A stretch of DNA of 37,642 bases, from positions 1 to 37,642 of the forward strand of contig JAFTNI010000218.1 of NCBI GenBank assembly GCA_017451975.1, given 5' to 3'. Shown one piece after another: positions 6,062-22,045 of the stretch. The DNA is from Clostridia bacterium. Its GTDB lineage: Bacteria > Bacillota > Clostridia > Oscillospirales > CAG-272. A model generated the notes under the pieces. That model worked only from the letters and a program-made list of their open reading frames with translations. It was not told the DNA's origin and did not search any database. Within the stretch, counting starts at the first letter, position 1. Each line of letters opens with the position of its first letter. Position numbers and translations under genes: made by a program.

Positions 6062-6125
6062 AAAGAAAAATGAAAATTTTTTTCATTTTCGCGATAAAAG
6101 GATTTTACGAAAGCGAGGATATTTG

Positions 6126-6965
6126 ATGAATACCACTATTCTCCAAGCTCAGCTTTTGTATAATGAAATGGGTAAATCCGAAAAAAAGGTGGCAGATTGG
6201 CTTATTTCCCACCCGGGCGATAATTTGCCGATGTCTATTTCCGAGCTTGCAGAGCTTTGTGAAAGCTCGGAATCCACTATAGTGCGTTTTGCCAGAAGGC
6301 TCGGATTTTCGGGCTACAGGGAGCTTAAAATTTCCGTGGCGGGCGAGCAGGAAAAAAAGGTTGTGCTCCCCACTATAGACGAAAACGACTCCTGCTTTGA
6401 AATACTCGAAAAAATATGCAACGATGCATACCTTTCCTTTGAGCGCACAAAACGCACCATTGCCCCCGAAAATATTGCCGCCGCCGCAAACCTTATTGCG
6501 AGCGCGCGCAAAACCGTGCTTATCGGCCTCGGCTCCTCCGCCTCCGTCGCAAATGATGCTGCGAACAAGTTTCTTCGCGCGGGCTACGAAGCCTATTCCT
6601 ATGGCGACACGCATATGCAAATGATAGCCGCCTCACATATGAGGGAGGGCGACGTTATGATAGGCATTTCGCAATCGGGCGCATCGAAGGATATAGTAGA
6701 GGCGCTGAAGTTTGCCAAAAGCCGCGGCATTTCCACAATTTGCATAACCGGCACGGACCGTTCACCCATTATGAAGCAGAGCGATATTGTGCTGCTGACC
6801 GACACAGAGGAAACGAAGCACAGTTCACTTGCGTTAAGCTCCCATCTCTCGCGCCTCGTCGTTATAGACGCTCTTTGCTACTACCTCGTTTACAGAAACG
6901 AGCAGAGCGGCGATGTCGATGGCGAGAACCAGAAAAGTCTTAAATCGAAACGTGTAGACGAATAA
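6126..6965 (+). CDS. RpiR/MurR-family transcriptional regulator (HTH_6 + SIS phosphosugar-binding domain)
   Basis: HTH (ISELAELCESSESTIVRFARRLGFSGYRELK) followed by an SIS domain (VLIGLGSSASVA ... ISQSGASKD). Start moved to ATG 6126, which is preceded by GAGGA. Confidence 0.85.
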   Translation: MNTTILQAQLLYNEMGKSEKKVADWLISHPGDNLPMSISELAELCESSESTIVRFARRLGFSGYRELKISVAGEQEKKVVLPTIDENDSCFEILEKICNDAYLSFERTKRTIAPENIAAAANLIASARKTVLIGLGSSASVANDAANKFLRAGYEAYSYGDTHMQMIAASHMREGDVMIGISQSGASKDIVEALKFAKSRGISTICITGTDRSPIMKQSDIVLLTDTEETKHSSLALSSHLSRLVVIDALCYYLVYRNEQSGDVDGENQKSLKSKRVDE

Positions 6966-7015
6966 GGCTTACTTTACGAAAGCAAGCCTCAACATATAAA
7001 GTGGAGGAATTGTTT

Positions 7016-8227: not shown

Positions 8228-8250
8228 TTAAATGAAAGGAAATAAAAATC

Positions 8251-9054
8251 ATGATCTCATCTTTCGAAATTAAAAAGGAAATATGCGAAGTAGGTCACAA
8301 AATTTATGCTGAAGGCTTCGTAGCTGCAAACGACGGTAACATTTCCGTTAAGGTTAGCGACAACGAATACTACTGCACACCTACAGGCGTATCCAAAGGC
8401 GACCTCACACCCGATATGATTATCCGTATCGACGGCAAGGGTAACAAAATCGAAGGCAGACTCAACCCCTCCTCCGAAATCAAAATGCACCTCCGTGTTT
8501 ACCAGGAAAGACCCGACGTAAACGCAGTTGTTCACGCTCACCCTCCCGTTGCAACAGCTTTCACAGTTGCAGGAGTACCGCTTGACAAATACATCCTTCC
8601 CGAAGCAGTTCTTACTATAGGCTTCGTTCCCACTTGCGAATACGGCACACCTTCCACAATGGAAATTCCGGATTCTCTTATGCCCTACATTCAGAACCAC
8701 GATGCGTTCCTTCTCAAGAACCACGGCGCTCTTACAGTAGGTAACACACTTAAAAAAGCTTTCTTCACAATGGAAGAAGTTGAATTCAACGCTAAGATCT
8801 GCAAATATGCTATGGAACTCGGCAGGGTTGAGGAAATCCCCTGCGACCAGCTCGAAAAGCTTATGGAGCTCCGCAAGAAAATGCGTATCCCCGGCAAGCA
8901 CCCCGGCTGCAAAACTTGCAAAAACCTCGGCACACCCGAATGCAAATGCAAACAGAACGCTGTTACACCCAGCGGCATAGTAACAAGCACGGGCGCAGAC
9001 GAAGCACTTGTTGCTGAAATCACAAAGAAAGTTCTCGCAGCTCTCGGAAAATAA
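8251..9054 (+). CDS. class II aldolase (fuculose/rhamnulose-1-phosphate aldolase family) with C-terminal Cys-rich linker and encapsulation peptide
   Basis: Class II aldolase/adducin motifs (NDGNIS, HAHPP, LLKNHG). There is a roughly 55-aa C-terminal extension ending in the amphipathic helix EALVAEITKKVLAALGK. Confidence 0.85.
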   Translation: MISSFEIKKEICEVGHKIYAEGFVAANDGNISVKVSDNEYYCTPTGVSKGDLTPDMIIRIDGKGNKIEGRLNPSSEIKMHLRVYQERPDVNAVVHAHPPVATAFTVAGVPLDKYILPEAVLTIGFVPTCEYGTPSTMEIPDSLMPYIQNHDAFLLKNHGALTVGNTLKKAFFTMEEVEFNAKICKYAMELGRVEEIPCDQLEKLMELRKKMRIPGKHPGCKTCKNLGTPECKCKQNAVTPSGIVTSTGADEALVAEITKKVLAALGK

Positions 9055-9101
9055 TTCCCGTACATACCGTGGAATAGATTTTTTGAAAGGAGAGAACAAA
9101 A

Positions 9102-10559
9102 ATGGCAATTAACTGGACAGACGCGCAAATTGAAGAGATAGTTAAAAAGGTCGTTGCGGAAATCGGCGGCGAGCCGAAAAAAGAAGCGCCGGCATATAAC
9201 TCTGAAAGCTATAACGGCAGAAAGTTTATCGGTATCTTCGAAGATATGAACGACGCTATAGAGGCCGCAAACGCAGGCTACAAGGCTATTCGCTCCATGC
9301 GCGTTGAAGAAAGAGAAAAGCTCATTGAAAAGATCCGCGAAATGACGCGCGCGGAAGCCGAAATTATGGCGACCATCGGCGTGGCGGAAACGAAAATGGG
9401 CAGGGTAGACCACAAAATTGCAAAGCACCGCCTCGTTGCCGATAAAACACCCGGCACAGAGGACCTTATTTCCCAGGTTAAAACGGGCGACTGCGGTCTT
9501 ACTCTTACAGAAATGGCGCCTTTCGGCGTTGTGGGCAGCATCACACCCAGCACGAACCCCTCTGAAACCGTTATCTGCAACAGTATGGGCATGATAGCGG
9601 CGGGCAACGGCATTGTGTTCAACCCCCACCCCAATGCAATAGCAACATCCAACTACGCCGTAGACCTTATCAACCGCGCGTGCTTCGCGGCGGGCGGCCC
9701 GAAAATACTCGTGGCTTCCGTTAAAAAGCCCACGCTCGATACGGCGAACATTATGTATAAAAGCCCGCTTATAAGGCTTCTTGTTTGCACGGGCGGCCCC
9801 GGCGTTGTAAGAGCCGTGCTTGCTTCGGGCAAGAAGGCTATAGGCGCGGGCGCGGGTAACCCCCCCGTTATCGTAGATGATACGGCAGATATCCAGAAGG
9901 CGGCAAAAGATATTATCGACGGCTGCACCTTCGATAACAACCTCCCCTGCATAGCGGAAAAAGAAGTTTTCGCCTTCGATAATATCGCAGACGAGCTTAT
10001 TGCAGGTATGCTTAAAAACGGCGCTTATATGATAAACGCCGCACAGGCAGAGGAGCTTTCCAAAATAGTTCTCGTAGATACGAAGAACCCGAAAACGGGT
10101 ATCGTTAAAAAGACGGTAAGCCGCGATTGCGTAGGCAGAGATGCTAAAGTGCTTCTCGCCAAAATCGGCGTACACGTTGGCGACGAGGTTCGTTGCATTA
10201 TCTGCGAAACGAATTTTGAACACCTCTTCGTTCAGGAAGAGCTTATGATGCCTATTCTTCCCATAGTTCGCGTAAAGAATATCGACGAAGCTATAGAGAA
10301 GGCTGTAGCCGCTGAACACGGCAACAGACACACGGCTCATATGCACTCCAAGAATATCGACCATCTCACGCGCTTTGCAAGAGCCGTTGAAACGACGATA
10401 TTCGTTAAAAACGCACCTTCCTACGCCGGCATCGGCTTCGGCGGCGAAGGTCACACAACATTTACCATAGCAGGGCCTACGGGCGAGGGCATTACCTCTG
10501 CAAAGAGCTTTACCCGCTTGCGCCGCTGCGTAATGGCGGATAACTTCCGCATAATCTGA
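9102..10559 (+). CDS. pduP: CoA-acylating aldehyde dehydrogenase (PduP/EutE family) with N-terminal encapsulation peptide
   Basis: Catalytic Cys context NNLPCIAEKE and EutE/PduP-type length. N-terminus is DAQIEEIVKKVVAEIGG followed by a linker. Confidence 0.9.
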   Translation: MAINWTDAQIEEIVKKVVAEIGGEPKKEAPAYNSESYNGRKFIGIFEDMNDAIEAANAGYKAIRSMRVEEREKLIEKIREMTRAEAEIMATIGVAETKMGRVDHKIAKHRLVADKTPGTEDLISQVKTGDCGLTLTEMAPFGVVGSITPSTNPSETVICNSMGMIAAGNGIVFNPHPNAIATSNYAVDLINRACFAAGGPKILVASVKKPTLDTANIMYKSPLIRLLVCTGGPGVVRAVLASGKKAIGAGAGNPPVIVDDTADIQKAAKDIIDGCTFDNNLPCIAEKEVFAFDNIADELIAGMLKNGAYMINAAQAEELSKIVLVDTKNPKTGIVKKTVSRDCVGRDAKVLLAKIGVHVGDEVRCIICETNFEHLFVQEELMMPILPIVRVKNIDEAIEKAVAAEHGNRHTAHMHSKNIDHLTRFARAVETTIFVKNAPSYAGIGFGGEGHTTFTIAGPTGEGITSAKSFTRLRRCVMADNFRII

Positions 10560-10581
10560 TAATAGAAAGGAAGAAACGACA

Positions 10582-11829
10582 ATGGCACTCAATCCTTCCG
10601 ATATCGAAAGCATTGTTCGCAAAATCGTCAGCGAAATGGGCGCCCCCGCGGGCGGTCAGAAGCACGAATGCTGCGGCGGCCACGGCGGCGAATGCAAGTG
10701 CGGCAAGCACGGCGAGCTCCCCAAAACGGCTAAAGTTGCAATGCTTACAGATACAAAGAAAATAGAAATAAAAGAATTTGCCGTTCCCGAGCTTCAGGAC
10801 GACGATATACTTGTTAAAGTTGAAGGCGCGGGCGTTTGCGGTACAGACGTACACGAATGGAAGGGCGACCCCTTCGGCCTTATCCCCGTAGTTCTCGGCC
10901 ACGAAGGCACGGGCGAAATCATCGCTCTCGGCAAAAACGTTAAATTCGATACAGCCGGCAACCCCATCAAGGTTGGCGACAAAATCGTTACATCCGTTAT
11001 TTCCTGCGGCGAATGCAATATCTGCCGCAACCACCCCGCAAACACAAACCTTTGCGATAAGCAGGGCGTTTTCGGCCTTATCGGTCACAACGACGATAAC
11101 CCCCTCAACGGTTGGTTTGCAACACACCTTCTCATCAGAGATAAGGGTGCTACATATTTTGTAGTAAACGACCTCGACCTCTATGAAAGAATGATTCTCG
11201 AGCTTGCTTGCGTTTGCGTACACGCTCTCAAACGTGCAAACACAACAGGCCTTATGAACTTCAATACAAAGGTAGTTATCCAGGGTCTTGGCCCCGTTGG
11301 TCTTGTTATGGCTTATGTGCTCCGCGCGGCAGGTATCAACCATATCATCGCTATCGACGGCACACCCATGCGCCTTGAAATGGCTAAGAAGCTCGGTGTT
11401 AAGACTGTTATCAACTTCAGAGAAGCTACGACTATAGAGCAGAGAGTTGCTCTTGTAAAAGAAGCTTGCGGCGGCAACCTTGCAGACTTTGCATTCCAGT
11501 GCACAGGCGCTCCCTCTGCTGCAGCAGATATCTATTCCTACATTCGCCGCGGCGGCGGTATGTGCGAAATGGGCTTCTTCGTTAACAACGGCGAATACCA
11601 GATCAACCCCCACTTCACAATGTGCAATAAAGAGATCAACCTCGTTGGCTCTTGGGACTACAGCGCAGACGACTACCCCACGACAATGGCGTTCCTCCGC
11701 CAGGCTCGCGAGATGAATATTCCGATAAAGGATCTCATCACGCACACCTTCCCCCTCGATAAAATGAACGAGGCAATGGAAACAAACGTTGCTCAAGCAG
11801 GCATCAAGATTTGCTACGTTGCTGAATAA
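10582..11829 (+). CDS. Zn-dependent medium-chain alcohol dehydrogenase with N-terminal encapsulation peptide and Cys/His-rich linker
   Basis: GHEGTGEI catalytic Zn motif and CGECNICRNHPANTNLC structural Zn motif. N-terminus is PSDIESIVRKIVSEMG followed by HECCGGHGGECKCGKHG. Confidence 0.85.
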   Translation: MALNPSDIESIVRKIVSEMGAPAGGQKHECCGGHGGECKCGKHGELPKTAKVAMLTDTKKIEIKEFAVPELQDDDILVKVEGAGVCGTDVHEWKGDPFGLIPVVLGHEGTGEIIALGKNVKFDTAGNPIKVGDKIVTSVISCGECNICRNHPANTNLCDKQGVFGLIGHNDDNPLNGWFATHLLIRDKGATYFVVNDLDLYERMILELACVCVHALKRANTTGLMNFNTKVVIQGLGPVGLVMAYVLRAAGINHIIAIDGTPMRLEMAKKLGVKTVINFREATTIEQRVALVKEACGGNLADFAFQCTGAPSAAADIYSYIRRGGGMCEMGFFVNNGEYQINPHFTMCNKEINLVGSWDYSADDYPTTMAFLRQAREMNIPIKDLITHTFPLDKMNEAMETNVAQAGIKICYVAE

Positions 11830-11840
11830 GGAGAAAACCT

Positions 11841-12158
11841 ATGGCACTCGGTATGATAGAAGTATACGGATTTGCCACATCGATAGTAGTTGCAGATAAG
11901 GTTGCCAAAAGCGCCGAAGTTAAAATAGTTGCTATCGATAAAAACAAGCCGGCAAATGCCGACAAAGTAGAAGTACCGCTTGTAATGGTGGTAAAATTCG
12001 AAGGCGGCGCTTCCGAAGTGCGTGCGGCTCTTGAAGCAGGCGTGGAAGAAGCGCAGAAAAGAAACCTCTATATTGCCTCGCGCATTATCACAAGGCAATC
12101 GGAGGAAATGGAGTGGTTCGCTCACCTGAACGCACTCGGCAAAGATAAACTCAGATAA
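11841..12158 (+). CDS. divergent BMC-H shell protein (Pfam00936-like) with enlarged pore loop and C-terminal tail
   Basis: ALGMIEVYGFATSIVVADKVAKSAEV matches the BMC-domain N-terminus. The canonical KIGSG pore loop is replaced by KNKPANADKVEVP. Confidence 0.7.
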   Translation: MALGMIEVYGFATSIVVADKVAKSAEVKIVAIDKNKPANADKVEVPLVMVVKFEGGASEVRAALEAGVEEAQKRNLYIASRIITRQSEEMEWFAHLNALGKDKLR

Positions 12159-12194
12159 CCCCACAAAATTATAATATTAAGGAGATTAATAATT

Positions 12195-12470
12195 ATGCAG
12201 GAAGCACTCGGAATGGTAGAAACAAGAGGTCTTGTTGCGGCTATCGAAGCAGCAGACGCAATGGTAAAAGCAGCTAACGTTACACTTCTCGGCAGCGAAA
12301 AAATCGGCTCCGGACTCGTTAGCGTAATGGTTCGCGGCGACGTTGGCGCAGTTAAAGCAGCTGTAGAAGCAGGCGGCGACGCAGCACAGAAGCTCGGCGA
12401 AGTTGTAGCACTTCACGTAATTCCCCGCCCCCACGGCGATGTTGAAAAGCTTCTTCCTAAGCTTGACTAA
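12195..12470 (+). CDS. BMC-H shell protein (PduA/EutM-like)
   Basis: [27 protein letters not shown]...[25 protein letters not shown] is a canonical hexamer sequence. Confidence 0.92.
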
Positions 12471-12492
12471 TTCGAAAATTAGGTAAAAAGTT

Positions 12493-12765
12493 ATGGAAGC
12501 AATAGCGTTACTCGAAGTTCAGGCGCTTGTTGCGGCTATCGCAGGACTTGACGCGATGGTGAAAGCGGCAAACGTTAAGCTCATTCACGTAGAGAAACGC
12601 TTGGGCGGACGACTTGTAACAGTCGTTGTCGAAGGCAGTGTGTCGGACGTTACGGCGGCGCTGGAGGCAGGCAAGGTTGCGGCAGCCCAGGTGGGCAACG
12701 TAAAGCTTGCAGAGGTTATCGCACGTCCGCACCCCGACGTTATGAGCTTTCTTACAACAGGCTGA
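12493..12765 (+). CDS. BMC-H shell protein, second type
   Basis: BMC-domain pattern ([49 protein letters not shown]). Confidence 0.85.
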   Translation: MEAIALLEVQALVAAIAGLDAMVKAANVKLIHVEKRLGGRLVTVVVEGSVSDVTAALEAGKVAAAQVGNVKLAEVIARPHPDVMSFLTTG

Positions 12766-12812
12766 TGCCTGAAAAATAAAAAAACAAAAATTTTTAAATG
12801 GAGGAAATAAAA

Positions 12813-13085
12813 ATGGAAGCACTCGGAATGGTAGAAACAAGAGGTCTTGTTGCAGCTATCGAAGCAGCAGACGCAATGGTAAAAGCAGCTAACGTTGTTC
12901 TTATCGGCAGCGAAAAAATCGGCTCCGGACTCGTTAGCGTAATGGTTCGCGGCGACGTTGGCGCAGTTAAAGCAGCTGTAGAAGCAGGCGGCGACGCAGC
13001 ACAGAAGCTCGGCGAAGTTGTAGCACTTCACGTAATTCCTCGTCCTCACACAGACGTTGAAAAGCTTCTTCCTAAACTCGGCTGA
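12813..13085 (+). CDS. BMC-H shell protein, near-identical paralog of 12195..12470
   Basis: About 95% nucleotide identity to 12198..12470. Start set at ATG 12813 (GGAGGAAA RBS); the ATG at 12798 lies inside the RBS. Confidence 0.9.
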
Positions 13086-13109
13086 TATTAAACCGATTTA
13101 AGGAAACCG

Positions 13110-13140
13110 TTCTTCAAGGGGCTTTCCGCCCCTTGAAGAA
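13110..13140 (+). other. perfect 13-bp stem-loop directly after the shell-gene block
   Basis: ttcttcaaggggc-tttcc-gccccttgaagaa. A second hairpin (tgccgc-aag-gcggca) follows at 13150..13164. Confidence 0.7.
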
Positions 13141-13227
13141 ATGAGGTTTTGCCGCAAGGCGGCAGAAAAATAATAGTGTTCTACGTTATGAACAGAAAGT
13201 CTTAATTTAATGAAGTTTTGCAATCTG

Positions 13228-13296
13228 TAGGGGCCGACGTCCTCGGCGGTCCGTTTCAGATAAATGCGGGTGGACCGCCGAGTACGCCGGTCCCTA
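13228..13296. repeat. GC-rich ~69-nt imperfect palindrome (REP/MITE-like element)
   Basis: The arms taggggccgacgtcctcggcggtcc and ggaccgccgagtacgccggtcccta pair over 25 positions: 22 Watson-Crick pairs, 2 mismatches and 1 G-U. Its GC content contrasts with the A/T-rich flanks. Confidence 0.6.
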
Positions 13297-13384
13297 TAAA
13301 AAATAGCGTCGCTCCATTAACTTCGAAAAAAACCCCGCTTTTGCGGGTTTACATACAAAAATAAATTGCAGAGGAGCCAAAAAT

Positions 13385-14047
13385 ATGGAATATTCATCTG
13401 CGGATATTGCCGCAATCGTTCAAAAAATTATAGCAGGCATGGGTGCGGAAGAAACGGCAGCAGGAAACGGCGCAGACGTGCCGATAGGCGTTTCCAACCG
13501 CCACGTTCACCTTTCTCGCGAGCACCTCGACGTGCTTTTCGGCAAGGGCTATGAGCTTACAAAGGCGAAAGACCTTTCCCAGCCCGGTCAGTATGCGGCA
13601 AACGAGGTCGTAACCATCGTTGGACCCTCGCTTCGCCCCATAGAAAAAGTAAGAGTTCTCGGCCCCATTCGCTCCGCCTCCCAGGTGGAAGTGTCTATGA
13701 CAGACTCTTACGTTCTCAAAGTTAAGCCACCCGTTCGCGAATCGGGCAAAATAGAAGGCTCTGCGCCTATTACGATGATAGGCCCGAAGGGCGTTGTAAC
13801 GCTTACGGAAGGCTGCATTATCGCCAACCGCCACATACATATGAGCCTTGCAGACGGTGAAAAATACGGCGTTACCGACGGCGATTACGTTACCGTTGAC
13901 GTAGAGGGCAAGGGCAAAAAAACCCGTTGGTACGGCGTTCAGGTTCGTGTGAACAAAGCCTTCGCGCTTGAAATGCACGTTGACACAGACGACGCAAACG
14001 CTGCGGGCATAGGTAACGGAAGCCTTGTTAAAATCGTAAAAGAATAA
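13385..14047 (+). CDS. pduL: PduL-type phosphotransacylase with N-terminal encapsulation peptide
   Basis: Two PduL repeats (GVSNRHVHLS and IANRHIHMS). N-terminus is SADIAAIVQKIIAGMG. Confidence 0.9.
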   Translation: MEYSSADIAAIVQKIIAGMGAEETAAGNGADVPIGVSNRHVHLSREHLDVLFGKGYELTKAKDLSQPGQYAANEVVTIVGPSLRPIEKVRVLGPIRSASQVEVSMTDSYVLKVKPPVRESGKIEGSAPITMIGPKGVVTLTEGCIIANRHIHMSLADGEKYGVTDGDYVTVDVEGKGKKTRWYGVQVRVNKAFALEMHVDTDDANAAGIGNGSLVKIVKE

Positions 14048-14067
14048 GCTCGGTAAGGAGAAGCGTT

Positions 14068-14322
14068 ATGTTAAAGGGACTTGTTATAGGAAACGTCGTT
14101 TCCACAAAGAAGCAGGAAAGCCTTACCGGCAGCAAATTTCTTGAAGTAAGAATTATCGAAAACAATCGCGAAACAGATAAATATATCGTTGCCGTAGACA
14201 GCGTTGGCGCAGGCATCGGCGAGGAAGTGCTTATCACTACGGGCTCCAGCGCCCGTTTGGCGCTCCGAAACCAGTTTGAGCCCGTAGACGCAGTTATTGT
14301 CGGCATAGTAGACCCGAAATAA
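14068..14322 (+). CDS. eutN: BMC-P pentameric vertex protein (EutN/PduN/CcmL family)
   Basis: 84 aa, with GNVVSTKK...FLEV...AVDSVGAGIGEEVLITTGSSAR typical of the EutN/CcmL fold. Confidence 0.9.
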   Translation: MLKGLVIGNVVSTKKQESLTGSKFLEVRIIENNRETDKYIVAVDSVGAGIGEEVLITTGSSARLALRNQFEPVDAVIVGIVDPK

Positions 14323-14374
14323 ATATTGCGCTTGCGCAGTAGTTTAAGGAAAAATTATTGAAAAGGAGCAAACC

Positions 14375-15808
14375 ATGTCGGATAAAATGGATAATGTTTT
14401 GTCCCAAGAGGGAAGATACGCTATCTACCGCAAGCCTGCACCCGCCGCCGATACTTATGAAGGCATTCTCAGAATGACCGCACAAAGAATCGAATTCAAG
14501 GAGTGCGTTAAGGTTGCGGGTATAGTCGGTGCCGGAGGTGCCGGGTTCCCGTCCTATGCAAAAATTGCAGACGGTGTGGATACGGTGCTTATAAACGGTG
14601 CAGAATGTGAATCTTTGCTTTATACGGACTATACAATTATGCGCGATGAACTTCGCAAGGTTGTGGAGGGCATAGAATATGTCATAGAAAATACGACGGC
14701 GCGCCGCGGTCTGCTCTGTGTAAAGGAGCATACCGGAAAAAAACTCGGCTTTTTTGACGGCCAGAAGCTTTCCGAACATACGGCAGTGAAATTTTTGCCC
14801 GACGTTTATCCCATGGGTGACGAAATAAGCCTTATATACGAGGCAACGGGCAGAAGCATAAAAGCGGGCAACCTCCCCGTTTCCGTGGGAGTTATCGTTT
14901 ATAACGTTGAGACAGTGTTCAACATACGTGAATCGTACCGCCACAGAATTGCCGTTACGCATAAGTGGCTTACCATAGGCGGCAACACACCGAAAAAATT
15001 GGTGATCTGCGTGCCCGTGGGTACTTATGTGAAAGATATTTTTGCCAGATACGGCATAGAAGTGCCCGATGGCAACGTAGTGCTGGACGGCGGCCCTGCT
15101 ATGGGCAAAATTATAAACGCAGAACGCGCTACGGTTACAAAAACCACAAAATCGCTTCTCATTTTACCCGAGAAGCTTCCCATAATACAATCCAGGCTCA
15201 CGGGGCTTGACGTTCAGCTCCGCAGGGGCTCCTCTGCTTGTTGCCAATGCACGCGCTGCACAGACCTTTGCCCCCGCAACCAGCTCGGCTATCCGCTTGA
15301 ACCGCACAAGCTTGTGCGAGTAGCAGAGGGTATAGGTACAGTGGATGCAAAGCTATACGCTACCGCGACGATGTGCTGCGGATGCGGTATATGCGAGCAC
15401 GCCGCTTGCTGCCAGGGAATATCCCCCAGAGCTATGATATTCAAGCTCAAGGAAGAGCTTGGAAAAGCAAAAACAAGATATATTTCCGACGATACCATCG
15501 CTCCGCGCGATACTCGCCCCTACCGTATGATCTCCAGCGAGCGCTGGAAAGAGATCATCGGGGTATCCTCCTTCGACGGCGAGGCGAAATATGCCGGAGG
15601 CTTTGAACCCGATAGGGTAGAGATATTTATGGCGGGGCATATAGGTGTTCCATCCATTCCGATCGTCGAACAAGGTCAGCACGTTTCCGCGGGCGCAAAG
15701 ATAGCGAACGCGGCAGACGGACTTTCGCTCCCGCAGTATGCGTCTATTTCGGGCGTGTGCGTGTTTGTGGACAAAACAAAAATAATTATAGAAAGGGACA
15801 AACAGTAA
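14375..15808 (+). CDS. pduS: PduS/RnfC-like Fe-S flavoprotein (NADH-binding, SLBB, two 4Fe-4S motifs)
   Basis: GAGGAGFPSYAKI nucleotide/FMN motif plus two Cys clusters (CCQCTRCTDLCP and CCGCGICEHAC). Confidence 0.8.
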   Translation: MSDKMDNVLSQEGRYAIYRKPAPAADTYEGILRMTAQRIEFKECVKVAGIVGAGGAGFPSYAKIADGVDTVLINGAECESLLYTDYTIMRDELRKVVEGIEYVIENTTARRGLLCVKEHTGKKLGFFDGQKLSEHTAVKFLPDVYPMGDEISLIYEATGRSIKAGNLPVSVGVIVYNVETVFNIRESYRHRIAVTHKWLTIGGNTPKKLVICVPVGTYVKDIFARYGIEVPDGNVVLDGGPAMGKIINAERATVTKTTKSLLILPEKLPIIQSRLTGLDVQLRRGSSACCQCTRCTDLCPRNQLGYPLEPHKLVRVAEGIGTVDAKLYATATMCCGCGICEHAACCQGISPRAMIFKLKEELGKAKTRYISDDTIAPRDTRPYRMISSERWKEIIGVSSFDGEAKYAGGFEPDRVEIFMAGHIGVPSIPIVEQGQHVSAGAKIANAADGLSLPQYASISGVCVFVDKTKIIIERDKQ

Positions 15809-15809
15809 T

Positions 15810-16355
15810 ATGCAGAATGCCGTAGGTATAATCGAACTGAAAAGTATAGCCAAGGGCGTTGAAGCTTGCGACTCCGCGCTTAAAAGCGCGGGCATAAGCC
15901 TTGTAAGCGCTCATCCGGCGTGTCCCGGAAAATATGAAATAATTATTACGGGGGCTATTGCCGACGTATCCGCGGCGGTTTCCCACGTAAAGGGAAGATT
16001 TGAAACAACCATAGTGGATACTTCTGTTATGGGCAGAATCGACCCACAGGTGGTAACGGCGCTTTTCGGCACTGAAGCCACAAAGAAAAGCGGCTCGCTC
16101 GGCGTTATAGAAACGTTTTCTGCGGCGAGCGCAATAAAAGCGGCGGATATAGCCGTTAAAACGGCAAACGTCGCTATATATGACCTGCGCGTTTCGCGCG
16201 GTATGGGCGGCAAGGGTCTTGTTATGATAACGGGCGACGTTGGCGACGTCAGCGCTTCCGTAGAGGCGGGCGCGGAATACGCCGCGGGCCTGGGCTTGCT
16301 TATGAACAAATCTGTAATAGCCGCACCGCACAAAGAGCTTTGGGAACAAATTTAA
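15810..16355 (+). CDS. pduT: BMC-T tandem-domain shell protein (PduT-like)
   Basis: 181 aa containing two BMC domains (AVGIIELKS... and SLGVIETFS...). A Cys sits in the first-domain pore loop (AHPACPGKY). Confidence 0.85.
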   Translation: MQNAVGIIELKSIAKGVEACDSALKSAGISLVSAHPACPGKYEIIITGAIADVSAAVSHVKGRFETTIVDTSVMGRIDPQVVTALFGTEATKKSGSLGVIETFSAASAIKAADIAVKTANVAIYDLRVSRGMGGKGLVMITGDVGDVSASVEAGAEYAAGLGLLMNKSVIAAPHKELWEQI

Positions 16356-16376
16356 AGTGAAGCAGGGTAATTTATC

Positions 16377-18905
16377 ATGGAAAATATAAAATTTGTTATA
16401 GAAAAAAGCGCGCGCATAGATAAGCTTATTTCGGCAATGTATGAAAAGCTGCCCGAAATTGAAGCAGACCGCGGCGTGCTTGTTACCGAAAGCTATAAAG
16501 CAACAGAGGGCTTGCCCCTTGTAAAGCGCAGAAGCGCCGCTTTTGCGCACATACTCCGCAATATTCCCATAGTTATCCGCGAAAACGAGCTTATCGCGGG
16601 AAGCACCACGGTTACCCCCCGCGGATGCCAGGTTTTCCCCGAATATTCTTATGAATGGCTTGAAGCGGAGTTTGATACCGTTGCAAAAAGAGAAGCAGAC
16701 CCCTTCTACATTTCCGAGGAAACGAAGGCGAAGCTTCGCGAGGTTTACCCTTATTGGAAGGGCAAAACCGTTTCCGACCTTGCAAAAGCAAATATGGCGC
16801 CCGAGGCTTACGACGTATTTATGAACCACGGTATTTTTACCGTAGGCAACTACTTCTACAACGGCATAGGCCACGTTTGCGTTCAGTACGATAAGGTTAT
16901 TAACTTTGGCTACGAAGCAATTATAAACGAAGCTAAGGAAGAGCTTGCAAAGCTTTCCTTTGGCGACGGCGATTACGTGACGAAGAGAAACTTCCTTGAT
17001 GCCGTTATCGAAAGCTGTGAGGCTGTTATAGAGTACGCTCACCGCTACTCTGTGCTTGCAATCCATATGGCTGAAAAAGAGCACGATATGGGCAGAAAGA
17101 TGGAGCTGAAGCGTATAGCAGATGCTTGCGCGCACGTTCCCGAAAAGGGCGCGAGAACCTTCTTCGAGGCTTGCCAGAGCTTCTGGTTTATACAGATGCT
17201 TTTTCAGACGGAATCAAGCGGCCACTCCATTTCCCCCGGACGTTTCGACCAATATATGTACCCATTCTACAAGAAGGACAAGGACGATGGCGTTATCTCT
17301 ATAGAAGAGGCGCAGGAGTTTATAGACAATATCTGGGTTAAGCTCAACGATATAAACAAGGTTCGCGATGCGGCAAGCGCAGAGGGCTTTGCGGGCTACG
17401 GTCTTTTCCAGAACCTTATTGTCGGCGGCCAGGACATTTACGGTATGGACGCTACAAACGACCTTTCCTATATGTGCCTTGAAGCGGCAATGCACGTTCC
17501 GCTTCCCCAGCCCTCCATTTCCATTCGCGTATGGAACGGCTCGCCCAAATCCTTGCTTATAAAAGCGGCGGCGCTTACCCGTACGGGTACGGGCTTGCCC
17601 GCATACTACAACGACGAGATCATTATTCCCTCGATAATGGCGCGCGGGCTCACGCTCGAGGATGCGCGCGACTACTGCATAATCGGTTGCGTTGAACCGC
17701 AGAAGGCGGGAAAGACCGATGGTTGGCACGATGCGGCGTTCTTCAATATGTGCCGCCCGTTGGAGCTCGTTTTCTCCGACGGTGTCGATAAGGGCAAGCA
17801 GATCGGCCCCAAAACGGGCGACGTGCTTGAAATGAAAACGTTTGAAGAATTCTACGATGCTTACAAGAAGCAATCTGCCTATATGGTAGAGCTTATGGTA
17901 AACGCAGATAACGCCGTAGACGCGGCGCACGCTATGCGTTGCCCCTTGCCCTATCAATCTTGCATGGTTGACGATTGCATAAAGCGCGGTAAATCCTTGC
18001 AGGAAGGCGGCGCTATCTATAATTTCACAGGTCCCCAGGGCTTCGGCATTGCCAATATGACCGATGCGCTCCTTGCCGTTCGCGAGCTTGTTTTCGAAAA
18101 GAAGCTCGTTACTATGGCAGAGCTTAAGGCGGCGCTTGAAAATAACTACGGCAAGGGCTTGCGCGGCTATGACGCAGAGCGCCTTACCGCAGACATAGCG
18201 CAGAAAATAGCCGAAAGCGGTTCTACTGTAAACGAGGACGTTATAAAGGCTATATACGGCGCGGTTACAACGGGCGAATATTTGCCCGACGGCGCAAGAA
18301 TGAGATATGACGAAATTCTTTCGCTTATCGCAGGCGTGCCGAAGTACGGCAACGATATACGCGAGGTTGACCTTTTTGCCCGCGACGTTGCTTACACATA
18401 TACAAAAGAGGTTGAAAAATATAAAAACTACCGCGGCGGTACATACCAGGCGGGGCTTTACCCCGTTTCCGCAAACGTGCCGCTCGGCGCTCAGACGGGC
18501 GCAACGCCCGACGGCAGACTTGCCTATACGCCTATTGCAGACGGCGTAGGCCCCGTTTCGGGCAGCGATACGCGCGGCCCCACGGCGACGGCAAACTCTG
18601 TTGCCAAGCTCGACCACGGTATTGCAAGCAATGGTACGCTTCTTAACCAGAAGTTCCACCCCAGCGCGCTTGCAGGTATGGCGGGGCTTGAAAAGTTTGT
18701 TTCGCTCATTCGCGGCTACTTCGACCAGAAGGGTATGCACGTTCAGTTCAATGTAATCAACCGCGAAACCTTGCTCGATGCGCAAAAGCACCCCGAAAAC
18801 TACAAAACGCTTGTTGTTCGCGTTGCGGGCTACAGCGCGCTTTTCACAACGCTTTCGCGCTCGCTCCAGGACGATATCATAAACAGAACGGAACAGGGAT
18901 TTTGA
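16377..18905 (+). CDS. glycyl radical enzyme, diol-dehydratase/lyase class (probable B12-independent 1,2-propanediol dehydratase)
   Basis: 842 aa. Active-site GCVEP (Cys-x-Glu) and C-terminal glycyl radical motif VVRVAGYSALF...QDDIINRTE. The substrate is inferred from the co-encoded aldolase. Confidence 0.85.
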   Translation: MENIKFVIEKSARIDKLISAMYEKLPEIEADRGVLVTESYKATEGLPLVKRRSAAFAHILRNIPIVIRENELIAGSTTVTPRGCQVFPEYSYEWLEAEFDTVAKREADPFYISEETKAKLREVYPYWKGKTVSDLAKANMAPEAYDVFMNHGIFTVGNYFYNGIGHVCVQYDKVINFGYEAIINEAKEELAKLSFGDGDYVTKRNFLDAVIESCEAVIEYAHRYSVLAIHMAEKEHDMGRKMELKRIADACAHVPEKGARTFFEACQSFWFIQMLFQTESSGHSISPGRFDQYMYPFYKKDKDDGVISIEEAQEFIDNIWVKLNDINKVRDAASAEGFAGYGLFQNLIVGGQDIYGMDATNDLSYMCLEAAMHVPLPQPSISIRVWNGSPKSLLIKAAALTRTGTGLPAYYNDEIIIPSIMARGLTLEDARDYCIIGCVEPQKAGKTDGWHDAAFFNMCRPLELVFSDGVDKGKQIGPKTGDVLEMKTFEEFYDAYKKQSAYMVELMVNADNAVDAAHAMRCPLPYQSCMVDDCIKRGKSLQEGGAIYNFTGPQGFGIANMTDALLAVRELVFEKKLVTMAELKAALENNYGKGLRGYDAERLTADIAQKIAESGSTVNEDVIKAIYGAVTTGEYLPDGARMRYDEILSLIAGVPKYGNDIREVDLFARDVAYTYTKEVEKYKNYRGGTYQAGLYPVSANVPLGAQTGATPDGRLAYTPIADGVGPVSGSDTRGPTATANSVAKLDHGIASNGTLLNQKFHPSALAGMAGLEKFVSLIRGYFDQKGMHVQFNVINRETLLDAQKHPENYKTLVVRVAGYSALFTTLSRSLQDDIINRTEQGF

Positions 18906-18913
18906 TTTAGGTT

Positions 18914-18945
18914 TTAACCGTGTGCCCGAAAGGGCGCACGGTTAA
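18914..18945 (+). terminator. strong hairpin after the GRE gene (possible partial terminator or mRNA stabiliser)
   Basis: ttaaccgtgtgccc-gaaa-gggcgcacggttaa: 14-bp stem with one G-U and a GAAA loop. The TTTTT run begins 8 nt downstream. Confidence 0.5.
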
Positions 18946-19092
18946 AGTGAAGTTTTTCTGCGAAGACGGCACTTAAAAGCTTATAATTTTGACCGATACT
19001 GCCGCGGGATGCTTCGCTACGCTCGAGCATGACACGCGGAAGAAGGTTTATGATTGATGCATACAAATAAAACAAATTAACGTAAAAAATCA

Positions 19093-19149
19093 CACGAAAT
19101 AAACGTCTTTTTTGAATGAAGTTCTTTGCTGAGCTTTCTTTCAAGAAAG
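19093..19149 (+). repeat. 57-nt intergenic repeat, copy 1 (ends 18 nt before the activase ATG)
   Basis: cacgaaataaacgtcttttttgaatgaagttctttgctgagctttctttcaagaaag. About 93% identical to 20033..20089. Confidence 0.85.
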
Positions 19150-19167
19150 CGAAGAGGGAGAAACGCG

Positions 19168-19953
19168 ATGGGAATTTACGATACACAGGGCAGAATATTT
19201 GATATACAGCGTTTTTCCATCCACGATGGGCCGGGTATACGCACAATAGTCTTTCTGAAGGGCTGCGTGCTTCGCTGCCGCTGGTGCTGCAATCCGGAAT
19301 CGCAGGAATATAAAATACAGGAGCTCGTGCGCGGCGGTAAAAAAGAAATAGTCGGCCGTGACGTTACCGTGCGCGAAGTGATGGAAGAAATAGAAAAAGA
19401 CGCGCCGTATTACGAAAGAAGCGGCGGCGGTGTAACCCTTTCGGGCGGTGAGGCGCTTTGCCAGCCCGATTTCGCGGCGGCAATATTCAAGGCTTGCCAC
19501 GATTACGGCATAAATACCGCTATTGAAACAACGGGTTACGCAAAAAAAGAAGTGCTTGATAAGGTGATACCTCACGTCGACTACGTTCTTATGGATATAA
19601 AGCACGTAGACAGCAAAAAGCACGAAGCCTTTACGGGCAAACCCAACGAGCTCATACTTGAAAACGCAAATTATATAGCGAGCATGGCGCAGGATATGAC
19701 CGTGCGCGTGCCCGTGATACCAACCTTCAACGATACGCCTGAAGAAATACGCGCTATAGCAAAATTTGCCGCGCGGCTCCCCGGTGTTATGAAGCTCCAC
19801 CTTTTGCCGTACCACAGGCTCGGCAGAGATAAATATACGGGGCTCGGAAGGGAATATACACTCGATAGCATCGAGCCGATGCCGCAAGAAAAAATAAACA
19901 CACTCTATGAAGCGGCCACTGAAAGCGGCTTGCTTGTTCAGATAGGTGGATGA
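19168..19953 (+). CDS. glycyl radical enzyme activating enzyme (radical SAM, short PflA-like form)
   Basis: CVLRCRWCCNPES (CX3CX2C) and the N-terminal FSIHDGPGIRT motif. Start set at ATG 19168 (GAGGGAG RBS) rather than TTG 19126. Confidence 0.9.
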   Translation: MGIYDTQGRIFDIQRFSIHDGPGIRTIVFLKGCVLRCRWCCNPESQEYKIQELVRGGKKEIVGRDVTVREVMEEIEKDAPYYERSGGGVTLSGGEALCQPDFAAAIFKACHDYGINTAIETTGYAKKEVLDKVIPHVDYVLMDIKHVDSKKHEAFTGKPNELILENANYIASMAQDMTVRVPVIPTFNDTPEEIRAIAKFAARLPGVMKLHLLPYHRLGRDKYTGLGREYTLDSIEPMPQEKINTLYEAATESGLLVQIGG

Positions 19954-20032
19954 GTATTTTGAAATGAAGTATTTCACCGTTCGGTGAAATATGAGGTTGC
20001 GGCTTTGCCGCAATGCGGCAAGCGAAAATCCG

Positions 20033-20089
20033 CACGAAATAAACGTCTTTTTTTGAATGAAGTTCTTTGTCTGCTTTCTTTCAAGAAAG
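20033..20089 (+). repeat. 57-nt intergenic repeat, copy 2 (ends 17 nt before the pduU-like ATG)
   Basis: cacgaaataaacgtctttttttgaatgaagttctttgtctgctttctttcaagaaag. Confidence 0.85.
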
Positions 20090-20106
20090 TGGAGGGAGGT
20101 ATTTTT

Positions 20107-20475
20107 ATGGATGAACTTTCTATGCGCGATAAAATGCGTATTATACAGGAGCTTGTGCCCGGTAAGCAGATAACGCTTGCTCATATTATAGCGAACCCCG
20201 ACCCCGTGCTTTACAGAAAGCTGGGGCTTGACCCGAAGGGCGATTACGGCAGAAGCGCAATAGGCGTGCTTACGATAAGCCCTGCCGAAACCGCCGTTAT
20301 ATGCGCCGATATTGCTATGAAATCTTCGGGCGCGACGGTTGAGTTTGTAGACCGTTTTACGGGTACGCTTATTATAACGGGTACTGTTTCCGAAGCGGAA
20401 GCGGCTATAATTGCCGTTACCGATTATTGCAGAGATAAGCTTCACTGCACTGTTTGCGAAGTGACGAGAACATGA
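20107..20475 (+). CDS. pduU: circularly permuted BMC-H shell protein (PduU/EutS type)
   Basis: RIIQELVPGKQITLAHIIANPDP...AIGVLTISPAE...FVDRFTGTLIITG is the PduU/EutS pattern. Start at ATG 20107 (GGAGGGAGG RBS). Confidence 0.85.
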   Translation: MDELSMRDKMRIIQELVPGKQITLAHIIANPDPVLYRKLGLDPKGDYGRSAIGVLTISPAETAVICADIAMKSSGATVEFVDRFTGTLIITGTVSEAEAAIIAVTDYCRDKLHCTVCEVTRT

Positions 20476-20903
20476 AAAAAATTATGTTTGTCGGCAGAGT
20501 GGGCGCGGGCAAAACCACGCTCACGCAAAGGCTGCGCGGTGAAAAAATTCATTACTATAAAACGCAGTACGTTCACTATGGCGACCTTATAATAGATACG
20601 CCCGGTGAATATACAGAGCGCGCAAACCTTGCGGGGGCGCTGGCGCTTTACGCCTATGAAGCAGACGTTGTGGGCTTTCTTATAAAGGCTAACGACGTTT
20701 ATTCCATTTACGGCCCTAATATTACCTGCATGGTAAACCGCGACGTTATAGGCATTGTAACGGCTATAGACCGCCCCGATGCCAACGTGGAAAAATGCAA
20801 GGAGTGGCTGAGGCTGGCGGGCTGCAAAACTATTTTTGCGCTCGATTCAAAAACAGGCAGAGGAGTCGATGCGCTGCTTGAATATCTTTCAAAGGAGGAA
20901 TAA
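20472..20903 (+). CDS. eutP: EutP/PduV-family small GTPase
   Basis: MKKIMFVGRVGAGKTTLTQRL P-loop, DTPGEY switch, about 143 aa. The ATG overlaps the pduU stop (ATGA). Confidence 0.85.
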   Translation: MKKIMFVGRVGAGKTTLTQRLRGEKIHYYKTQYVHYGDLIIDTPGEYTERANLAGALALYAYEADVVGFLIKANDVYSIYGPNITCMVNRDVIGIVTAIDRPDANVEKCKEWLRLAGCKTIFALDSKTGRGVDALLEYLSKEE

Positions 20904-20906
20904 GCC

Positions 20907-21701
20907 TTGCGTAAGGAAACGAAAATAATTGCTTTCGCCAATAACAAGGGCGGAAGCGGAAAATCTACCACTTGCTCCAATATAGGCTACGTGCTTGCCG
21001 AAAGCGGCTATAACGTGCTTATGGTCGATGCAGATATGCAGCAAAACCTTTCGCTTTCCTTTTTCGAGGAAGAGGACGTGCTTGCTTTTTCCGAAAGCGG
21101 CGAAAACCTTTTCACGGCTATAAAGGAAGAGCGCGATGCTTCCTCTTTTATAAGAAAAACGAAATATAAAAACCTTTCCCTCATTCCCTCGGGCATACTT
21201 ATGAGCGGTGCGGAATTTGAGCTTTACGGAAAAAAGGAAGGGGAAAAAACTCTTGCCCGCGTGCTTGAGGGCGCGCGCAAAAGCGGGGAATACGATTTTA
21301 TTCTTATAGATTCGCCGCCTACGCTCGGCATGGTAGTGCTTAATATAATGTGTGCCGCAGATTATTTGCTCATTCCCATAGAAGCAAGCCCGTGGGGGCT
21401 TTTCGGCCTTGCCAATATGCTCGATTTCTTTGCGAAAACGAAGGAGCAGAACCCCGCGCTTTCGCTTTTGGGCATAGCCGTTACGAAGGCAGACGAGCGA
21501 AAAACATATTTCCGCCAGACGATGGAATTTCTTGAAGAGCTTGAAAATGTGAACGTTTTCAAGACTTATATAAGAATAGACAGCGCCGTGGAATGGGCGC
21601 AGGATAACAGCCAGCCCGTTGCGGCATATAAGAAAAACAGCAGAAGCGCTAAAGAATACGCCGAAATGGCAAAGGAGATGCTTGAATATGTCAATAGGTA
21701 A
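20907..21701 (+). CDS. ParA/Soj/MinD-type deviant Walker A ATPase encoded inside the BMC operon
   Basis: IAFANNKGGSGKSTT (signature Lys present), VLMVDADMQQN and FILIDSPP. The TTG start lies 3 nt after the eutP stop, with AAGGAGGA upstream. Confidence 0.85.
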   Translation: MRKETKIIAFANNKGGSGKSTTCSNIGYVLAESGYNVLMVDADMQQNLSLSFFEEEDVLAFSESGENLFTAIKEERDASSFIRKTKYKNLSLIPSGILMSGAEFELYGKKEGEKTLARVLEGARKSGEYDFILIDSPPTLGMVVLNIMCAADYLLIPIEASPWGLFGLANMLDFFAKTKEQNPALSLLGIAVTKADERKTYFRQTMEFLEELENVNVFKTYIRIDSAVEWAQDNSQPVAAYKKNSRSAKEYAEMAKEMLEYVNR

Positions 21702-21885
21702 AAAGAGCATTGCCCGCGCGGCCACGGCAGCCGCGAAGGCAGACGCCGTGGCGGAAGAAACCGCCCCCACACCCGTAAAAGAGCCCGTACCCGCCGCAAA
21801 GGCAGCAAAGCCCCAAAAAGCGGAGCCCGCCGAAAAATTTAAGAAAGTAAGCGTTGGCGATAAAATGCCGCCATTTCTTCTTTGA
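21688..21885 (+). CDS. 65-aa Ala/Pro/Lys-rich predicted disordered protein, candidate ParA partner
   Basis: The ATG overlaps the last 14 nt of parA-like and has an AAGGAG upstream. Sequence is MSIGKKSIARAATAAAKADAVAEETAPTPVKEPVPAAKAAKPQKAEPAEKFKKVSVGDKMPPFLL. Coding status is supported only by position and ORF. Confidence 0.5.
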   Translation: MSIGKKSIARAATAAAKADAVAEETAPTPVKEPVPAAKAAKPQKAEPAEKFKKVSVGDKMPPFLL

Positions 21886-21901
21886 AAAAAGCATAATTTT
21901 G

Positions 21902-21934
21902 TGCCCTTGCGTAAACCGCAAGGGCAGTTTGTTT
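21902..21934 (+). terminator. Rho-independent terminator ending the BMC operon
   Basis: tgcccttgcg-taaac-cgcaagggca followed by gtttgttt. Confidence 0.75.
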
Positions 21935-22016
21935 CGCGAAAACGGCGATTTTTCCGCAAAAAAACGCCTATATGAAAAAATAACCTGTTTCGAAGGCGTT
22001 TTTTAAAAAATAGTTG

Positions 22017-22045
22017 TTGCAAAAAATCAATTTATGTAGTACAAT
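22017..22045 (+). promoter_or_regulatory. candidate SigA promoter for capD-like gene
   Basis: TTGCAA, 17-nt spacer, TACAAT. Confidence 0.4.

Follow-up and report, generated by a model that had tools for sequence, protein, structure and literature searches.

Among the closest described counterparts of the gene pair reported here are the McdAB systems of carboxysomes. In alpha-McdAB of Halothiobacillus neapolitanus, the gene for a ParA-type ATPase with a signature lysine is followed directly by that for its partner McdB, a small monomeric protein, ~95% of it disordered, that binds McdA through a basic helix of ~17-20 amino acids (aa) at its N-terminus (PMC8359340, PMC12139897, PMC11321042). The N-terminal 20 aa of McdB are required for McdA binding and suffice for it, Lys7 being critical (PMC12139897), while a C-terminal aromatic residue mediates carboxysome binding (PMC11321042). 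For catabolic bacterial microcompartments (BMCs), placement and inheritance are an acknowledged open question, for which the only earlier lead was the GTPase PduV (PMC8262871, PMC12866334). ParA (PF01656) was listed among the ancillary Pfams of BMC loci by Axen et al. 2014 (PMC4207490), and MacCready et al. 2021, in section 2.9 and Fig. 8f of their report, placed McdA- and/or McdB-like genes in or beside four non-carboxysome BMC operon types and described a C-terminal tyrosine (PMC8359340). Basalla et al. 2024, in Fig. 4 of theirs, presented McdB-like proteins of the propanediol utilization (PDU) type and of the GRM type (glycyl radical enzyme-associated microcompartments), with Tyr or Phe conserved among the last five residues and acidic residues close by (PMC11321042). 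These putative McdAB-like pairs in GRM and PDU operons are reports from the Vecchiarelli laboratory, and Byrne et al. 2025 named the extension to other BMC operons as future work (PMC12139897). McdAB-like pairs for catabolic BMCs have thus already been predicted from genomes, and no new principle is claimed here. The present text concerns one such pair, a ParA ATPase and an overlapping 65-aa adaptor, encoded at the 3' end of a BMC locus in a stretch of 37,642 nucleotides (nt) from a Clostridia bacterium (contig JAFTNI010000218.1), the whole of which is called the window. On the basis of gene linkage, motif architecture and analogy, we consider it probable that the pair is a ParA-driven positioning or anti-aggregation system for the catabolic BMC encoded upstream.

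The features on which this account depends are listed here, all of them on the forward strand.

7001..20475, forward strand: GRM-type BMC locus (Pfam scans), the presumed cargo and context of the pair
20454..20903, forward strand: PduV/EutP small GTPase gene (Pfam PduV-EutP, E = 4.6e-48; NCBIfam TIGR02528, 139 bits, just over the cutoff of 138.35)
20892-20899, forward strand: Shine-Dalgarno sequence of ParA, AAGGAGGA, 7 nt 5' of the TTG start, from sequence
20907..21701, forward strand: ParA open reading frame (ORF), 264 aa, Pfam AAA_31 (3e-48)
20940..20969, forward strand: deviant Walker A, NNKGGSGKST, residues 12-21, with signature Lys14; K14, G15-K19 and T21 invariant in the clade
21015..21047, forward strand: Walker A', VLMVDADMQQN, residues 37-47; D41 and D43 invariant in the clade
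21297..21320, forward strand: Walker B, FILIDSPP, residues 131-138; D135 invariant in the clade
21498..21503, forward strand: invariant Arg198-Lys199, level with the Arg of Soj 'D-x-R' in the HMMER alignment to 8RAY and 1WCV
21672..21677, forward strand: Shine-Dalgarno sequence AAGGAG of the adaptor gene, 10 nt 5' of its ATG, within the 3' end of ParA
21688..21885, forward strand: adaptor ORF, 65 aa, ATG start, overlapping ParA by 14 nt
21688..21723, forward strand: N-terminal peptide of the adaptor, MSIGKKSIARAA, net charge +3; M1, G4 and K5 invariant, R10 nearly so
21853..21882, forward strand: C-terminal motif of the adaptor, VGDKMPPFLL; G57, P61, L64 and L65 conserved, Phe63 at position -3
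21902..21936, forward strand: intrinsic terminator at the end of the operon, 10-bp stem with 7 GC pairs and a T-rich tail

The layout is compact. The stop codon of PduV/EutP is the TAA at 20901-20903 and the start of ParA is the TTG at 20907-20909, leaving a gap of 3 nt, and the ribosome-binding site of ParA lies inside the PduV/EutP gene. An alternative in-frame TTG for the adaptor is found at 21682; the ATG at 21688 is the start conserved in all homologues. The strongest terminator-like site occurs only 3' of the adaptor gene, not 3' of ParA; it consists of a hairpin at 21902-21926 followed by GTTTGTTT, and it separates the pair from a CapD-like gene downstream. Because the ribosome-binding site is inside PduV, the gap is of 3 nt, ParA and adaptor overlap and the terminator comes only after the adaptor, the two genes appear to be co-transcribed with the shell and enzyme genes. 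A sequence-only reading of this segment had described the TTG start behind the eutP/pduV stop, the three nucleotide-binding motifs, the 14-nt overlap with a 65-aa ORF of basic N-terminus and hydrophobic tail, and a strong terminator, and the coordinates above bear out each of these. It is to be noted that PduV and ParA share a reading frame in the window and are split by TAA GCC alone (20901-20909), whereas in most homologues the ParA ATG is in another frame with an 8-nt overlap with the PduV end, a difference that is probably insignificant.

The linkage of the pair to BMC genes was followed through a genome scan, with one genome per species and a threshold of at least 58% identity for the ParA clade; the protein database held many homologues of the window ParA at 57-100% identity. 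Twelve species-representative genomes carried such a ParA, all from uncultured gut Clostridia/Eubacteriales, including Candidatus Scatosoma. In 12/12 of these, and in ~11 further metagenome contexts, the gene closed a BMC locus of conserved gene order at its 3' end, and it followed PduV/EutP directly in most homologous loci. On the metagenome contigs of the ParAs P0048, P0019 and P0077, as on those of the adaptors P0153, P0165 and P0230, it took this 3' position directly after PduV. The next-best ParAs of the scan shared at most 36% identity and had no BMC genes nearby. The linkage is strict: the sequence-only reading had named homologues lying mainly away from BMC loci as an outcome that would count against it, and every readable context of a ParA at or above the threshold proved to be a BMC locus. 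Beyond the pair, the downstream flanks were unrelated, comprising ribosomal S18/SSB, PfkB, GH106 rhamnosidase, BacA, Mur ligase, fumarase, MatE, rhamnosidase and phosphotransferase system (PTS) genes. In loci L014 and L015, the pair is kept with the core of aldolase, aldehyde dehydrogenase (AldDH) and alcohol dehydrogenase (ADH), while the glycyl radical enzyme (GRE) and its activase are absent; the shell genes there are a BMC-T at ~8618-9162 and a BMC gene at ~9173-9541. In L048:1-5006, the pair stands in a BMC locus after a DeoR regulator, with no adjacent PduV. Its persistence in L014, L015 and L048 ties the pair to the genes of shell and organelle and not to GRE or PduV. A search with PduV for loci lacking the pair returned close relatives only (at least 61% identity), and of the three PduV homologue loci sampled the pair was found in 2/3, a sample too small for a frequency.

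The small ORF is, from its conservation, a real protein family. In 16/16 loci it starts with ATG, has an overlap of 10, 14 or 26 nt with the end of ParA and stays open despite many indels, and AAGGAG precedes it in most homologues. A profile search of the 90%-identity database recovered 385 members, all unnamed, in which no Pfam domain was detected save occasional HC2 low-complexity matches, and an exhaustive HMMER search of 1.84 billion representatives yielded 287 clusters at 50% identity, again all unnamed. Lack of conservation of the ORF, the other outcome that the sequence-only reading had held to be damaging, was therefore not what was seen. Adaptor length ranges from 61 to 223 aa in the family and from 65 to 223 aa in the 16 loci, and alignment revealed invariant residues at the two ends only (M1, G4, K5 and nearly R10; nearly G57, then P61, L64 and L65), joined by linkers of 40-200 aa that vary freely and are the least conserved part. 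The N-terminal consensus is M-[SP]-[IV]-G-K-x-[SA]-[ILV]-x-[KR]. Residues 6-12 lie beyond the ParA overlap and are conserved all the same, so that the coding of ParA does not account for their conservation. The C-terminal consensus is [ILVF]-G-x-x-[LM]-P-x-[Y/H/W/F]-L-L-COOH. In the best 150 family representatives (P0241-P0390), on which the motif counts were made, both terminal motifs were present in 133/150. Of 137 representatives, 93 had Tyr at position -3, 30 had His, 10 Trp and 4 Phe; the His variants end in LPVHLL and the Trp variants in MPYWLL. The dominant ending of the family, G[ED][DE][ML]PYYLL, was found in 114/120. Overall, the family is built, by analogy, like a ParA adaptor of the McdB type, with a short N-terminal peptide of basic and aliphatic character, then a flexible linker, then a cargo-binding element at the C-terminus.

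Within this family, the window adaptor is near the short end of the length range and carries the rarest residue, Phe, at -3. Its isoelectric point (pI) is 9.8 and 72% of its residues are disorder-promoting, with A, K and P together at 54%, a low-complexity composition. In the AlphaFold2 (AF2) model, the predicted local distance difference test (pLDDT) score was <50 over residues 22-65, with a helix at low confidence (pLDDT 51-57) over residues 5-22 in the fusion to ParA. No Pfam or NCBIfam match was obtained for it, and no helix-turn-helix (HTH), ribbon-helix-helix (RHH) or ParB domain. Its linker is short, with a net charge of ~0 and no AT-hook or KKP repeats. The N-terminal peptide is presumed from its sequence to be the ParA-binding, ATPase-activating motif, and VGDKMPPFLL is similarly presumed to be the shell-docking motif. 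The latter has F at -3 and D at -8, which agrees with the Basalla 2024 description of McdB-like proteins; the invariant C-terminal Trp that strictly marks carboxysomal McdB is replaced in it by Phe63 at -3. The sequence-only reading had taken the missing Trp to make any relationship to McdB one of analogy and not clearly of homology. Trp is indeed absent, but this does not separate the adaptor from McdB-like proteins, as -3 is a conserved aromatic/His position. Judged by position, basic N-terminus, disorder and C-terminal aromatic residue, the predicted adaptor is McdB-like, and the ATPase is McdA-like in the contextual sense, being encoded beside a BMC operon with a small partner gene downstream.

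Several peculiarities of individual lineages were also seen. Most members contain a second conserved block, RV-x-NNGYS-x-VKT-x-APDMENS, at residues ~10-30 (e.g., L001:8806-8865), which is missing from the sub-clade comprising the window, L007 and L011-L013. The adaptors of this sub-clade have S[ILV]AR and a C-terminal Phe, together with the loop TLGM[VL] in ParA (residues 139-146), whereas all other loci combine an adaptor [ILV]KR with a ParA loop TLGGW. The covariation of adaptor position 9 (Ala/Lys) with the ParA loop could represent co-adaptation of an interface; it reflects one phylogenetic split and was not counted as evidence. In chromosomal ParA, a surface loop joined to Walker B touches the partner peptide (PMC12462528), and in the window ParA the loop TLGMVV comes directly after Walker B.

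The ATPase itself is a genuine member of the small Soj-like (type Ib) ParAs in the ParA/MinD superfamily. Its Pfam matches, well outside what chance would give, were AAA_31 (E = 3e-48; 164.5 bits, cutoff 27) and CbiA (5e-20; 72.2 bits, cutoff 25.4). A sequence search of the PDB with the window ParA ranked Myxococcus xanthus ParA (8RAY, 5.7e-27), HpSoj (3e-23) and TtSoj (3e-22) highly. An AF2 model was built of an adaptor-ParA fusion with a ParA-only alignment of 54 homologues, in which the ParA part scored a pLDDT mostly >90; the same fusion without alignment scored 36.6. When the ParA model was submitted to Foldseek, it matched the BsSoj model 9a6n (E 1.6e-22, TMt 0.93) as well as 8RAY, 2BEK and 6IUB, Cyanothece McdA taking rank 11. 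The chromosomal Soj/ParA proteins (M. xanthus 8RAY, HpSoj 6IUB and TtSoj 1WCV) are thus the best matches of the ATPase in both sequence and structure. We take the arginine of Soj 'D-x-R', with which the invariant Arg198-Lys199 is level, to be a non-specific DNA-binding residue, and DNA binding by the window ParA is plausible from its sequence. The ParA-binding motif of chromosomal ParB combines aliphatic and positively charged residues (PMC12462528), as does the N-terminal peptide of the window adaptor. Unlike Soj/Spo0J, the window pair has no ParB, parS or CTPase clamp, and in the alignment the chromosomal ParA motif 'IPRNVRLSE' is replaced by 'YIRIDSAVEW'.

Assignment to other members of the superfamily was examined through NCBIfam, and the window ParA fell under every equivalog cutoff for plasmid and chromosomal partition ATPases, MinD, BcsQ and BY-kinases. 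The score for ParA_partition (NF041546) was 89.3 bits, below its cutoff of 180, and those for the plasmid RepA equivalog and SopA were 86.6 bits against 348 and 66 against 725, respectively. A BY-kinase (CpsD/Wzc) was rejected at 57.9 bits for TIGR01007 (cutoff 108), the C-terminus EMLEYVNR having no Tyr cluster, and it was further ruled out by the KGG-type Walker A and by the terminator before the CapD-like gene. MinD was rejected at 45.5 bits for TIGR01968 (cutoff 212.9), the C-terminus of the window ParA being acidic and polar; the window ORFs scanned included neither MinC nor MinE. An Mrp/NBP35 Fe-S carrier was dismissed as well, with no CxxC in the 264 aa and a PF10609 match of 8.7e-13 against 3e-48 for AAA_31.

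From these elements, we infer the protein-protein contacts, the protein-DNA contacts and the cellular phenotype of a positioning system as follows. ATP-bound ParA dimers would sit on a cellular matrix, most likely the nucleoid, and the adaptor would be a disordered tether whose C-terminal G-D-K-M-P-P-F-L-L-COOH would attach to the BMC shell. At its other end, the basic peptide MSIGKKSIAR would bind the ParA dimer and stimulate ATP hydrolysis. ParA would thereby be released locally, and the resulting depletion zones would pull or space the organelles by a Brownian ratchet, as in McdAB and carboxysomes, such that they are distributed and inherited and not clumped at a pole. Comparative genomics supports the BMC-positioning interpretation offered by the sequence-only reading, the function being deduced from the genes. 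The likeness to alpha-McdAB lies in a ParA-type ATPase with the signature lysine and, encoded directly downstream, a small disordered partner with a basic N-terminus and a C-terminal aromatic motif. The differences are that the presumed cargo is a metabolosome, catabolic and of GRM type, from an anaerobic member of the Clostridia, that the aromatic residue is Phe instead of an invariant Trp, and that the sequence relationship seen was at the level of the ParA superfamily only.

A number of observations weigh against this positioning reading. The helix of the adaptor in the AF2 fusion reached a pLDDT of only 51-57. Cyanothece McdA (6NON/6NOO), the only McdA with a solved structure and the sole characterised McdA compared, matched the window ParA at 8e-15 over residues 6-179 only, which is weaker than Soj/ParA (1e-22 to 1e-27), and in this comparison the window ParA was not specifically related in sequence to a characterised McdA. 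M. xanthus ParA (MxParA) loses its DNA binding on the change R238E (PMC12462528), and in the HMMER alignment the counterpart of MxParA Arg238 is Ala227; because of this, nucleoid binding by the window ParA is not assured. In the rearranged locus L052, PduV occurs without ParA within 3 kb; therefore the module is not universal in this BMC type, to which it is a lineage-specific addition. In a 2026 study, the positioning of the Salmonella Pdu BMC was unaffected by heterologous McdAB and by the endogenous ParA or MinD (PMC12866334), and an experimental characterisation of a metabolosome-linked ParA pair was not found in the literature.

Other explanations of the same genes were considered against this evidence. 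The pair might be an ordinary DNA partition module of a chromosome, a plasmid or an integrative and conjugative element (ICE). The ATPase would then be a type Ib ParA, its partner a small centromere-binding protein, and their place beside the BMC operon fortuitous. Soj-type and type Ib ParAs are those that the ATPase resembles most, and the likeness to type Ib partition (ParF-ParG of TP228, delta-omega of pSM19035 and the C. estertheticum pair) extends to a ParA of ~260 aa without an N-terminal HTH, a partner gene overlapping the ParA stop, and a partner that begins with a flexible ParA-activating peptide and ends in a cargo-binding module. Type Ib plasmids show the same layout: on the C. estertheticum plasmid pCF009-c (L050:1516-2560), a ParA of 35% identity overlaps by 14 nt the gene for a 94-aa partner with a disordered N-terminus, the C-terminal half of which is RHH-like by eye. 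In the window adaptor, however, the C-terminal module is a 10-residue motif and not an RHH domain, no centromere accompanies it, and identity to the type Ib ParAs is 35-38%. No ParB/HTH gene was found among the window proteins by Pfam scans, and a search of the window for the parS consensus with up to 3 mismatches found none; a repeat search around the two genes gave chance-level short matches only, with no repeat array, and no replication, conjugation, plasmid or phage genes were present among the window ORFs scanned, so that the earlier remark on the absence of these elements holds. The best plasmid ParA, at 38% identity, adjoins a ParB, the adaptor had no match when compared with plasmids, and the BMC linkage is kept across many unrelated chromosomal flanks. 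A partition module is thus contradicted by the evidence, and we consider it very improbable. The proposal that the 65-aa ORF is not a gene, being an open frame left by the A/P/K-rich composition 3' of ParA, could draw on its shortness, its low complexity, the lack of a Pfam or NCBIfam match and the many long spurious ORFs of the window. It is contradicted by the open frame in every one of the 16 loci, by the AAGGAG site of its own, by the invariant terminal motifs and the 287 clusters, and by a terminator located 3' of this ORF and not of ParA; its likelihood is close to nil.

Two further explanations accept both proteins but assign them other roles. The adaptor could be a shell scaffold or condensate nucleator, with ParA as an ATP-dependent regulator of BMC assembly, size or number. 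Co-transcription of the pair with shell and cargo genes would suit such a biogenesis factor, as would the neighbouring PduV, another NTPase of unclear role, and the low-complexity, disordered adaptor resembles known BMC scaffolds and the phase-separating McdB (PMC8359340). Adaptor conservation is nevertheless confined to two short terminal motifs, and the adaptor gene always overlaps ParA (16/16 loci). As far as is known, every ParA/MinD ATPase that has been characterised serves as a positioning device. Taken together, a biogenesis role is decidedly unlikely. Alternatively, the adaptor may hitch-hike on the nucleoid, its basic linker binding DNA and fastening the BMC to the chromosome while ParA only modulates or releases the tether. 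A comparable tail rich in lysine lets PhaM tether polyhydroxybutyrate (PHB) granules to the nucleoid. Histone-H1-like KKPAAKK tracts were found in many homologues (PF07382 HC2 matches), at least 3 [APT][APT]KK units in 35/150 representatives, and AT-hook-like KRGRKPGSKN or RRGRPPK motifs in 10/150; such motifs also occur in the adaptors L014:10773-11444, L015:10773-11300 and L022:10770-11381, with KRGRKPGSKN two or three times and RRGRPPK, and the L014 adaptor has ~nine tandem PAKEEKPAVKAA repeats. Such linkers hint at direct DNA contact by the adaptor in some lineages, and the missing equivalent of MxParA Arg238 in the window ParA points the same way. Direct tethering is less likely here, because the window adaptor, with its short and nearly uncharged linker, has no such tracts; besides, the linker is the family's least conserved part, and ParA retains all catalytic motifs and the invariant R198/K199. 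We rate the chance of it as slim.

A broader proposal joins the two modes of action. The adaptor family would be a minimal two-motif organelle tether, consisting of an N-terminal peptide that activates ParA, a free linker and a C-terminal shell hook, whose linkers acquired H1-like or AT-hook tracts independently in several lineages, and metabolosomes of these gut Clostridia would be held at the nucleoid by direct DNA tethering together with a ParA ratchet, possibly coordinated with the PduV GTPase. This we consider unlikely; if true, the hybrid mode would be one undescribed for McdAB or any other ParA system. PduV/EutP is encoded in the same operon directly upstream and is an NTPase suspected in the spatial organisation of BMCs (PMC8262871). 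Its Ras-like GTPase fold is unrelated to that of ParA, and it occurs in most PDU, ethanolamine utilization (EUT) and GRM loci, while the pair is clade-specific.

Returning to the reading of the pair as a positioning system, its closest published parallels are the McdAB-like pairs of GRM and PDU operons, with which it shares a ParA-type gene and a small downstream ORF in or beside a non-carboxysome BMC operon. Their partners have Tyr or Phe within the last five residues, and the family's PYYLL ending fits this, a likeness drawn from the verbal description; 'YYLL' C-termini were not found in the supplement of PMC11321042. In the available text of those reports, neither the invariant N-terminal motif M-x-I-G-K-x-A-I-K-R nor His (30/137) or Trp (10/137) at -3, nor AT-hook/H1-like linkers, are mentioned. 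The same text gives Tyr/Phe only for non-carboxysome McdB-like proteins and Trp for carboxysomal McdB, to which the present family adds His and Trp. As far as seen, the additions to the published picture are therefore the exact terminal motifs, the size of the family, His and Trp at the aromatic position, the persistence of the pair in GRE-less BMC loci and the DNA-binding-like linkers of some members. As a candidate, the locus is compact and strongly conserved, comprising an ATPase of 264 aa and an adaptor of 65 aa, and residues of the adaptor can be named beforehand for mutagenesis, at its N-terminus K5 and R10, at its C-terminus P61, F63 and the final L64-L65. Being near the short end of 61-223 aa, the window adaptor would make a convenient construct. 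If the positioning reading is true, the McdAB principle would extend from carboxysomes to the fucose/rhamnose metabolosomes of gut anaerobes, and the C-terminal motif could be a portable tag, and the pair a spacing device, for engineered BMCs.

The genes upstream of the pair form, by their Pfam content, a fucose/rhamnose-type, GRM-type BMC locus in a gut Clostridia genome. In Pfam scans, their order was AckA (acetate kinase), class II aldolase, AldDH, ADH, four BMC-H, PduL/PTAC, EutN, a PduS-like flavoprotein gene, BMC-T, glycyl radical enzyme, activase, a BMC-domain protein and PduV. The remaining features of the locus and its surroundings are given below.

6033-6965, forward strand: RpiR-type regulator, 5' of the BMC locus
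14068-14322, forward strand: EutN (Pfam scan)
16377-18905, forward strand: glycyl radical enzyme (Pfam scan)
19126-19953, forward strand: activase of the glycyl radical enzyme (Pfam scan)
19984-20475, forward strand: ORF of the BMC-domain protein 5' of PduV (Pfam), likely start ~20104
26911-29238, reverse strand: glycoside hydrolase family 95 (GH95, alpha-L-fucosidase family) gene
32382-33854, forward strand: GH39 gene

The BMC-domain protein 5' of PduV has an N-terminal extension of ~50 aa and a weak, partial PF00936 match (4e-10, residues 52-111); its position is kept in all related loci, and it may be a divergent or permuted shell protein. The GH95 and GH39 genes near the locus and the RpiR-type regulator ahead of it fit fucose/rhamnose foraging, although the classical GRM5 loci of the literature have a DeoR regulator where the window has the RpiR type. 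An Rfam scan of the whole window gave no match. Several very long ORFs of the window are shadows of real genes on the opposite strand. Thus, the 1043-aa ORF at 457-3588 (forward strand), with no Pfam match, is the shadow of an aconitase-family gene at 1666-3621 (reverse strand), and the antisense 377-aa ORF at 20889-22022 (reverse strand), opposite ParA and the adaptor, was set aside as spurious, having no Pfam match.

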